In this document: positions 8,352 through 8,649 of the stretch, one piece after another | Layout: each line of letters starts with the position of its first letter | How positions within the stretch are numbered: the stretch's first letter is position 1 | Virus genome (UHGV): UHGV-2150566 | DNA length: 16,926 nucleotides | Source of the DNA: a virus | Direction: 5' to 3' (one strand) | Translations under genes and position numbers: made by a program | Notes under the pieces: model-generated | What the model saw: only the letters and a program-made list of their open reading frames with translations | The model's database searches: none | Told to the model about the DNA's origin: nothing

Positions 8352-8445
8352 GCAGAATATTTTGCTGAAAAATGCGGTTTTCTCACACGGACGGATAACA
8401 CGAAATCCTGCGAACTGACAAAAACTAAGTGAATAAAAGTAAAAA

Positions 8446-8480
8446 CCCCGTTTGTTGGCTGCAAGCGGGGTTTTGTGTTT
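8446..8480 (+). terminator. rho-independent terminator between endolysin and Rz (possibly bidirectional)
   Basis: Stem CCCCGTTTG / CAAGCGGGG (9 bp, one G-U), loop TTGGCTG, followed by TTTTGTGTTT; AAAAA run immediately upstream. Confidence 0.5.
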
Positions 8481-8549
8481 CCTGACTCTGGAAAAGTCAA
8501 AGGGGAAAGTGTGTTTGATTTTAGCAAACTGATTCGGGAGATTCGAGTG

Positions 8550-8648
8550 ATGGCTGAAAAATTATCCACCTGGAAGTTCATTCTTATCTGGCTGGTGTTT
8601 GTGATTATGGCCTCCGGTTATTTCATCGGTCAGATACGCTGGTGGTGA
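8550..8648 (+). CDS. hypothetical small transmembrane peptide (32 aa; up to 45 aa if GTG 8511 is used) coupled to Rz
   Basis: [32 protein letters not shown] is a single hydrophobic helix. Stop TGA 8646-8648 is 1 nt before the Rz ATG at 8650. GGGAG about 10 nt upstream of ATG 8550; alternative GTG 8511 has AGGGGAA upstream. Not in the ORF track (too short). Confidence 0.3.
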
Positions 8649-8649
8649 A

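Follow-up and report, generated by a model that had tools for sequence, protein, structure and literature searches.

A mobile hairpin-ORF cassette for a small membrane protein, with a predicted antisense RNA, in the endolysin-Rz gap of a lambdoid prophage

In canonical lysis cassettes of lambdoid phages the endolysin gene R is followed directly by the spanin gene Rz, and the two overlap by 4 nucleotides (nt) in the K-12 prophages DLP12 and Qin, the E2348/69 prophages PP2 and PP5, and phage SEN34. The virus genome UHGV-2150566 (16,926 nt; hereinafter designated the window, meaning the whole stretch analysed) is the late region of a lambdoid Escherichia coli prophage in which R ends at 8351 and the Rz ATG lies at 8650; because of the canonical overlap, the 298-nt gap represents an insertion. 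A sequence-only reading had placed a terminator and a small open reading frame (ORF) in a gap of about 300 nt, and had set it against the directly joined genes of other phages; both descriptions hold. The locus raises the question of what the inserted DNA encodes and how a gene behind a terminator could be expressed within a late operon. Here we describe a conserved membrane-protein gene that travels with the hairpin as one cassette, and propose, with a probability of roughly one half, that the cassette is a promoter-less unit resembling type I toxin-antitoxin (TA) loci, which carries an antisense RNA and is expressed only from late transcripts antiterminated by Q.

A conserved small membrane-protein gene in the R-Rz gap

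The elements of the insertion and its edges, in window coordinates, are as follows.

8352-8433, plus strand: R 3' flank (82 nt), outside the mobile cassette and common to the Sakai Sp15 junction
8434-8484, both strands: hairpin region forming the left end of the cassette, with an A-tract (8434-8441), a GC-rich stem-loop (8442-8474) and a T-tract (8471-8484)
8500-8513, plus strand: Shine-Dalgarno (SD) sequence SD1, AAGGGGA (8500-8506), and GTG start (8511-8513) of the 45-residue form
8511-8648, plus strand: gene for a 45-residue membrane protein (PHROG 6632), identified by profile match, ratio of nonsynonymous to synonymous substitution rates (dN/dS), AlphaFold2 and hydropathy
8536-8552, plus strand: internal SD2, GGGAG (8536-8540), and ATG (8550-8552), a candidate second start for a 32-residue form
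8518-8546, minus strand: predicted sigma-70 promoter, with -35 TCGAAT (8546-8541), 17-nt spacer and extended -10 TGcTAAAAT (TG at 8526-8525, hexamer at 8523-8518)
8511 to about 8434, minus strand: predicted cis-antisense RNA of about 78 nt, placed by the promoter position and the terminator
8640-8652, plus strand: coupling junction, comprising GGTGGTGA (final codons and stop), one A and the Rz ATG at 8650

The ORF in the gap is a real, conserved gene. Compared with 11 divergent homologues it shows a dN/dS of 0.08-0.26, with synonymous sites saturated in codons 15-44, and residues 1-45 of the window peptide align with profile positions 1-45 of 45 in PHROG 6632 (E=1.2e-29), a profile that homologues from Salmonella, Pseudomonas, the Rac-SA53 type and E. 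fergusonii match at 1e-23 to 1e-28. The conserved start is GTG 8511, which yields the 45-residue product annotated as WP_000459345.1 (by the Prokaryotic Genome Annotation Pipeline, PGAP) and CAH23245.1 (in CP-1639); the sequence-only reading had the right frame but began it at ATG 8550, giving 32 residues. Each of the 42 unique ORF sequences has GTG, TTG or ATG as codon 1 or 2, and in those read by eye the start is preceded at 5-8 nt by a purine-rich, SD-like stretch. In the Pseudomonas types an in-frame TGA precedes the start, which has shifted to a TTG at codon 2 together with its SD (GAGGAG). Codon 10 GAG, which belongs to SD2, and codon 14 ATG are likewise invariant (42/42), and since ATG14 and its SD GGGAG are both fixed, a second, 32-residue product is possible.

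The single transmembrane (TM) helix noted earlier is borne out and lies at residues 24-42 of the 45-residue form (Kyte-Doolittle mean 2.1). AlphaFold2 predicts helices at residues 4-17 and 20-44 (predicted local distance difference test score, pLDDT, 81) separated by a hinge at 18-19 that is often Pro. The N-terminal flank of the hydrophobic core carries a net charge of +2, only 3 residues follow the core, and the tail reads RWW. As modelled, the product would be a bitopic inner-membrane protein of N-in orientation whose cytoplasmic N-helix is amphipathic. No Pfam or NCBIfam family, holin families included, reaches threshold for the peptide, and PADLOC gives no match, in line with the earlier view that it is no canonical lysis component; its only PHROG match is 6632, which has no assigned function. 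Only 3-7 residues follow the TM helix and no lipobox is present, so the features of a spanin are absent.

A profile search of 1.84 billion representative proteins returned only 42 clusters, and the peptide family is therefore small. Three very long predicted proteins from this search, P0040 (4282 residues), P0046 (2385 residues) and P0053 (1109 residues), show 7-9 repeated matches each to the N-terminal and upstream portion of the profile and are probably mis-called ORFs running over repeated copies of the cassette leader. We also considered a 95-residue minus-strand ORF at 8294-8581, annotated in CP-1639, and rejected it: it crosses the terminator and the cassette edge, its ends vary with context and its replacements are non-conservative, while those in the plus frame are of the I/L/V type.

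The gene is coupled to Rz, as had been suggested: its TGA (8646-8648) is followed by a single A and then the Rz ATG, and its final codons, TGGTGGTGA, offer an SD-like sequence for Rz. Among operon-embedded copies inspected by eye, the next gene begins about 0-15 nt after the stop or overlaps it as ATGA. The junction takes the forms TGGTGGTGA-A-ATG, AAGGGGTAG-CT-ATG and ATGA overlaps, with the final codons doubling as SD. A few distant copies, such as L271 and L276, stand apart from neighbouring genes.

Cassette boundaries, hairpin and minus-strand element

Alignments across 8 unrelated genomic contexts place the start of homology at the A-tract (about 8434) and its end at the ORF stop codon, which identifies the hairpin and ORF (8434-8648) as one mobile cassette. 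The collection comprises 255 copies with 63 unique cores and 27 protein variants, drawn from IMG/VR, GTDB genomes (Escherichia, Trabulsiella, Citrobacter, Yersinia, Sodalis, Brenneria, Pantoea and Providencia), phage records (Salmonella and Pseudomonas) and the contigs of the protein clusters. The cassette follows at least four endolysin families, namely the GH24 signal-anchor-release (SAR) lysozyme of the window and SPN3UB, GH19 enzymes in E. fergusonii and Citrobacter, a CHAP enzyme in the Providencia type, and PG_binding_1 enzymes. The gene 3' of it is Rz in the window and SPN3UB, a DUF2514 Rz-like gene in E. fergusonii and a lipoprotein gene behind PG_binding_1, and in the Citrobacter GH19 (L104) and Providencia CHAP (L182) contexts the downstream gene is no identified spanin.

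While endolysin-spanin junctions are clearly favoured, the cassette also lies between baseplate genes in SEN34 and the Rac-SA53 type, with baseplate V and lambda tail protein I among its upstream neighbours. Copies in the tail operons of Pseudomonas and other siphophages adjoin a lambda-type tail gene I or K or lie near a gene with a Phage_tail_T domain, and one copy sits among ParE/RelB genes. The cassette thus lies inside a lysis cassette in the window and at least four further endolysin contexts, and outside one in the baseplate and tail contexts. Because baseplate and tail operons of lambdoid phages of Enterobacterales and Pseudomonas carry it too, the cassette is not lysis-specific, and the earlier framing as a peculiarity of the R-Rz junction is not supported.

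The stem-loop at 8442-8474 has 14 pairs followed by GTGTTTCC. The terminator reported earlier at 8446-8480 corresponds to this hairpin, which spans 8434-8484 with the flanking tracts. On the plus strand it presents the GC-rich stem and U-tract of an intrinsic terminator, with the tail TTTTGTGTTT; on the minus strand it reads with the tail TTTTTACTTTTAT, and the U-tract that would end the predicted antisense RNA is UUUUUACUUUUAU; in this direction the predicted terminator is at least as good as on the plus strand (GGGGUUUUUACUUUUAU in the window). We found 48 distinct variants of the hairpin with folding free energies of -15 to -29 kcal/mol. In register-matched arms 95% of cells are paired, a count biased upward by taking the arms from RNAfold output, and 5 of 11 pairs have changed on both sides, as in an A-U to G-C exchange at the pair adjoining the CCCC/GGGG core. 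None of 500 shuffles reached the pairing score, and controls slid out of register collapsed. All 24 lineages scored have both flanking tracts: of the 10 nt before the stem 5-8 are A, and of the 10 nt after it 6-9 are T. A consensus terminator scan by itself performed at chance level (2 found against 2.2 expected). Taken together, the hairpin is a predicted two-way intrinsic terminator under structural selection. A resemblance to an integron attC site was rejected on sequence, the hairpin being a GC stem with a U-tract. L142 and L203 have other DNA in place of the usual sequence upstream of the peptide gene and would be natural hairpin-less alleles; the L142 replacement extends up to the SD, and the ORFs upstream of it resemble, by eye, transposition proteins of the insertion sequences IS66 and IS21.

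The first codons of the gene are constrained beyond what the protein requires. Third positions changed 2.55 times per site by parsimony in codons 3-14 and 8.5 times per site in codons 15-44 (Mann-Whitney p=3e-5), with no changes in D3 GAT, S5 AGC and E10 GAG and one each in F4 TTT and R12 CGA, while in the rest of the ORF these amino acids are encoded by the full range of their codons. Codons 3-6 have the complement TGcTAAAAT, an extended -10 element, and that of codons 12-11 is TCGAAT or TCGCAA, located 17 nt upstream of it. Of 30 lineage representatives, 28 have their top minus-strand sigma-70-like site at the identical position. Motif conservation was tested further on distant relatives (35-50% identity), and TGnTAnnnT is kept in 35 of 37 lineages though the overlapped residues differ, DFSK being among the variants that retain it. 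Minus-strand motifs found opposite the residue variants are listed below, that of the window being TGCTAAAAT.

YFSK and HFSK: TGCTAAAAT
DISK: TGCTAATAT
NSSK: TGCTAGAAT
HISR: TGCTAATGT
DYIK (L275): TGATATAAT, a perfect extended -10
EFIK: TGATAAACT

The sole lineage that has no hairpin (L272) also has no TGnTAnnnT. These observations suggest that the cassette probably carries a built-in antisense promoter inside the ORF. A candidate plus-strand promoter within the ORF (TTGATT...GAGATT) was rejected, as its -10 is not conserved. From the minus-strand element we infer an antisense RNA of about 78 nt whose 5' end would lie opposite the GTG, whose body would be complementary to SD1 and the leader, and whose 3' end would be the hairpin. 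The predicted RNA folds into a 5' region and the terminator hairpin at -22.6 kcal/mol (z -4.3). An Rfam search of the whole window at E<=1 gave, within 8352-8649, only a chance-level minus-strand match to the rimP leader (E=0.3).

The comparison across related junctions that the sequence-only reading had proposed shows conservation of both the reading frame and the hairpin. That reading missed the 45-residue form, the two-way terminator design and the conserved minus-strand promoter-like element; what survives of its interpretation is a real membrane-protein gene that is coupled to Rz and is no canonical lysis component, along with the plausible idea of a membrane toxin, and what does not is the R-Rz framing and, as discussed below, a main role as a leader.

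Proposed expression of the cassette and its alternatives

We found no plus-strand promoter-like site in 7400-9500, and homology between cassettes begins at the hairpin, some 36 nt short of the start codon. The ORF has no terminator 3' of it, as the next gene begins 1 nt later. Sense transcription must pass the hairpin, since baseplate genes, which we take to be essential, lie downstream of some copies, and a terminator would be tolerable inside a late operon because the hosts checked are lambdoid and encode, or apparently encode, Q antiterminators (SPN3UB, E. fergusonii, SEN34 and, by position, the window). In the prophage state, unmodified RNA polymerase would stop at the hairpin, and any leak-through would be silenced by antisense RNA, which a constitutive promoter of the extended -10 type, opposite codons 3-12, would drive across SD1 and the start codon. 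Upon induction, Q-modified polymerase would pass the hairpin, flood the locus and collide with or occlude the convergent antisense promoter, so that the peptide is made late together with the downstream gene (here Rz/Rz1), to which ribosomes would be handed on. The late peptide would then probably perturb or bind an inner-membrane target, for example helping to time lysis. A double guard of terminator and predicted antisense RNA argues that the peptide would be harmful to the growing cell, and for the same reason the idea of a membrane toxin, one of those raised earlier, stays plausible. The preference for endolysin-spanin junctions suggests a late role at the inner membrane, and the copies in tail operons argue against a strict lysis role. 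Whether such cassettes amount to a new kind of module, a promoter-less type I TA-like unit that is silent in the prophage and switched by antitermination into a late effector (of lysis timing or membrane depolarisation, for example), is a more tentative proposition, which we consider possible but below even odds.

Several points weigh against this proposal. Among the hosts of the cassette, the Q check covered the window, SPN3UB, E. fergusonii and SEN34. One lineage (L124) has the hairpin but only a shifted TAAGAT. The predicted -35 TCGAAT matches 3 of 6 positions and a strict consensus scan did not call the site; moreover, an AU-rich composition of early codons can be favoured by selection on translation initiation, and the N-terminal part is also conserved at the protein level. 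Literature searches with the peptide and accessions returned no record of a transcript, transcription start site or ribosome profiling for the locus. Sakai, a strain for which Hfq crosslinking and analysis of cDNA (CRAC) data exist, lacks the cassette in Sp9, Sp10 and Sp15, the three prophages examined. Finally, the copies that stand apart from neighbouring genes (L271 and L276) may indicate that some cassettes have their own sense promoter.

The likeliest alternative is an ordinary late accessory membrane-protein gene with an insulator terminator upstream and no antisense RNA, in which the constraint on codons 3-14 would reflect an unstructured, AU-rich initiation region, SD2/ATG14 and the N-helix. 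The invariant SD2 GAG and ATG14, the N-terminal SK(L/I)xxExRxM that is conserved as protein even in distant members, the weak -35 and a small CCTTG..CAAGG stem between the terminator and SD1, which recurs but is no stabler than shuffles (mean z -0.6), are all consistent with this explanation. We nonetheless regard it as doubtful, though a serious contender, given that the invariable bases coincide exactly with the T,G / T,A / T that define an extended -10 and those between them vary, that the overlapped residues themselves change (DYIK gives TGATATAAT and NSSK gives TGCTAGAAT), that 41 of 42 unique sequences encode the Ser by AGC and none by any of the five remaining Ser codons (one has ATC, Ile), while Ser codons elsewhere in the ORF vary, and that the conserved upstream A-tract is unneeded by a plus-strand terminator. 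A leader ORF that does nothing but re-couple Rz translation after the insertion, or a spurious ORF, would account for the stop 1 nt before the Rz ATG and the SD-like final codons; the strong purifying selection on the amino acids, and the conservation of the family from Enterobacterales to Pseudomonas where no Rz follows, render it very improbable, and with it the earlier suggestion that setting Rz expression is the main function.

A dedicated regulator of lysis timing, the leading idea of the sequence-only reading, whether an antiholin, an endolysin-release factor or a spanin modulator, is suggested by the position of the cassette between endolysin and spanin-like genes in unrelated lysis cassettes (GH24 with Rz, GH19 with DUF2514, PG_binding_1 with a lipoprotein), and by the site just 5' of Rz, which repeatedly holds small TM ORFs (ECs_5741 in Sakai and a four-ORF array in L193). 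Phage P2 has lysA at the same position, between its endolysin gene K and lysB, which corresponds to Rz; LysA is a membrane-protein lysis regulator encoded between endolysin and spanin genes, and the antiholins lambda S107 and S21-71 are further membrane-protein regulators of lysis. The window gene shares with these its location between an endolysin and an Rz-type spanin and an inner-membrane product that would be made late, and differs in having no homology to them, a single TM helix with almost no periplasmic part, and copies outside lysis cassettes. We consider this explanation unlikely, as the cassette occurs in baseplate or tail operons of SEN34 (whose own R and Rz overlap without it), the Rac-SA53 type and Pseudomonas siphophages, similarity to holin or antiholin families is absent, and a periplasmic tail of 3-7 residues excludes a spanin-like role. 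A lysogenic-conversion gene (moron) that blocks superinfection or modulates a host membrane protein in the manner of HK97 gp15 appears slightly less likely again. Insertion where relatives have directly neighbouring genes, a product that is a small bitopic membrane protein, copies standing alone among TA genes, and diversification, with an array of other small TM ORFs at one locus as expected of arms-race genes, all speak for it; the lack of a conserved sense promoter, homology that starts at the terminator so close to the start codon and the absence of a PADLOC match speak against it. A terminator and likely antisense silencer directly upstream also argue against expression in the lysogen, and since nothing suggests such expression, superinfection exclusion is less likely.

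The proposed promoter-less, antisense-guarded unit can also be set beside known systems. Like the products of type I TA loci such as symE/SymR and hok/Sok, the peptide is small (45 residues, below 60), hydrophobic and single-TM, and the predicted antisense RNA, which would run from the early codons over the SD and start codon to a terminator, reproduces the geometry of SymR/symE and of IS10 RNA-OUT/RNA-IN. By contrast, the cassette has neither sequence homology to these loci nor a toxin promoter, its antisense RNA and toxicity are predicted only, and its peptide departs from most type I toxins in a conserved cytoplasmic helix of 22 residues. In classical morons the gene has a sense promoter of its own upstream and a terminator downstream (Juhala et al. 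2000; HK97 gp15, Cumby et al. 2012). The cassette resembles them as extra DNA, inserted between genes adjacent in relatives, that combines a small membrane protein with an intrinsic terminator; it differs in having no conserved sense promoter, a terminator that lies upstream and an ORF translationally joined to the next late gene. Late-operon sites of the kind at which the cassette is found are recognised as insertion hot spots (PMC4104026; PMC2629481).

Antisense-oriented small RNAs (sRNAs) with terminators have precedents in prophage late operons (PMC8550237 table S6; PMC4104026): PasA, PasB, PasC and AsxR/AgvB are terminator-bearing sRNAs of about 50-85 nt opposite late genes in lambdoid late operons (PMC8550237; bioRxiv 10.64898/2026.05.13.724894; PMC4104026), PasA and PasC being located between an esterase gene and a holin gene and PasB occupying the I-J gap of a tail operon (PMC8550237 table S6). 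These sRNAs act in trans via Hfq and are unpaired with a small ORF; none of them, AsxR/AgvB included, is similar in sequence to the cassette, and the predicted antisense RNA is alike in orientation and size only. Identity with PasA, PasB or PasC was rejected, as there is no sequence resemblance and E2348/69 PP2 and PP5 lack the cassette. EcOnc10, EcOnc11 and EcOnc12, which lie about 5 kb downstream of AgvB in Sakai, were also considered and set aside; EcOnc11 and EcOnc12 map downstream of Rz, and EcOnc10 was not located.

The PHROG 6632 family is already catalogued but uncharacterised, and its entry is silent on the hairpin, the cassette boundaries and the antisense element. Literature searches for the peptide sequence, the accessions and the PHROG identifier found no papers, and no description of a hairpin-ORF-antisense architecture was found. 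If the proposal is right, the cassette would give a phage a compact, portable way to tie a harmful gene strictly to antitermination and would extend the range of known prophage sRNAs by a cis-antisense RNA. Small membrane peptides would then be overlooked late or lysis effectors in medically important Shiga toxin (Stx) phages. On the more tentative view of a new kind of module, such an effector would occur in Stx phages, H-19B among them, and in roughly one of every six complete E. coli genomes, and the tandem, unrelated small TM ORFs at the R-Rz site would form a family of such effectors. For annotation, the practical warning is that a 300-nt "intergenic" gap between R and Rz is coding.

Distribution and surroundings of the cassette

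The R-cassette-Rz arrangement is present in 871 of 5,426 complete E. coli genomes, the fraction given above, and in 39 phage records at a coverage of at least 80%, including H-19B, CP-1639 and many Stx1a, Stx2a and Stx2c phages. In most of the phage records listed the ORF is unannotated, and where annotated it is a "hypothetical protein".

Other small ORFs occupy the same site. In Sakai Sp15 (L265 4749-5735) an R flank of about 85 nt, which matches window 8352-8436 by eye, is followed by an antirepressor gene (ant) and a 48-residue TM ORF, ECs_5741 (MGWLMISDKLITLVKSLCVLVGISFLVMLVAIFFSTAWRVLTLSGLVG), 7 nt before Rz; Sp9 (L267) and Sp10 (L266) also have R, ant, a small ORF and Rz in place of the cassette. 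BLASTP detected no similarity between ECs_5741 and the window peptide, and a literature search on the Sakai and EDL933 locus tags of this neighbouring small ORF gave nothing relevant. A second common E. coli allele (L193 3001-3488, from IMG/VR; 74 loci of this type among those collected) has four tandem single-TM ORFs in the R-Rz gap. ORF 1, the only one preceded by a hairpin, is a diverged cassette peptide, LIDFSKLIRELRLMISQLPNWKFLLVWSIPFLWVVSQLIVAIKG; ORF 2 has 43 residues and is homologous to ECs_5741; ORFs 3 and 4 are …MTDDISRALAFAIKWVAVGIAVSPMLYGLAKLVIALKS and MSAELIRAMAFAIRIVAIAVLVWAIRWW, the last of which shares the terminal IRWW of the window peptide and stops immediately 5' of the Rz ATG. 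In L005 (3274-3372) a second 32-residue TM ORF, MEALKLFEQSPILRRMYYAALLVALIWVIRWW, directly follows the cassette ORF and has the IRWW ending too, a hint that these peptides have duplicated or exchanged C-terminal segments.

Other features of the window are listed in order of position.

3490-3648: pair of tRNA genes (72.5 and 55.1 bits) preceding the putative Q gene, an arrangement also known from late regions of Stx phages
3930-4358: Q-sized ORF adjoining the STnc100 pR' leader, assigned as Q by position alone
4465-4674, plus strand: STnc100 pR' leader RNA (179 bits, Rfam search of the whole window)
4679-4731, minus strand: AsxR/AgvB-type anti-sRNA (63 bits, exactly the AsxR gathering score)
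7531-7559: strong terminator-like hairpin of 12 pairs followed by TTTTTATTT, about 40 nt 5' of the holin start codon
7598-7813: S21-like holin gene (ORF call)
7818-8351, plus strand: SAR-type endolysin gene R, the upstream neighbour outside the cassette (Pfam Phage_lysozyme, 3e-24)
8650-9117, plus strand: Rz i-spanin gene, the downstream neighbour (Pfam Phage_lysis, 7e-50)
8870-9055, plus strand: Rz1, embedded in Rz (ORF call)

STnc100 and the AsxR/AgvB-type RNA form the convergent sRNA pair described for Stx phages, and the window apparently belongs to a prophage that lacks stx. The hairpin at 7531-7559 is a second terminator directly before a lethal late gene and is unlike PasA and PasC of E2348/69.

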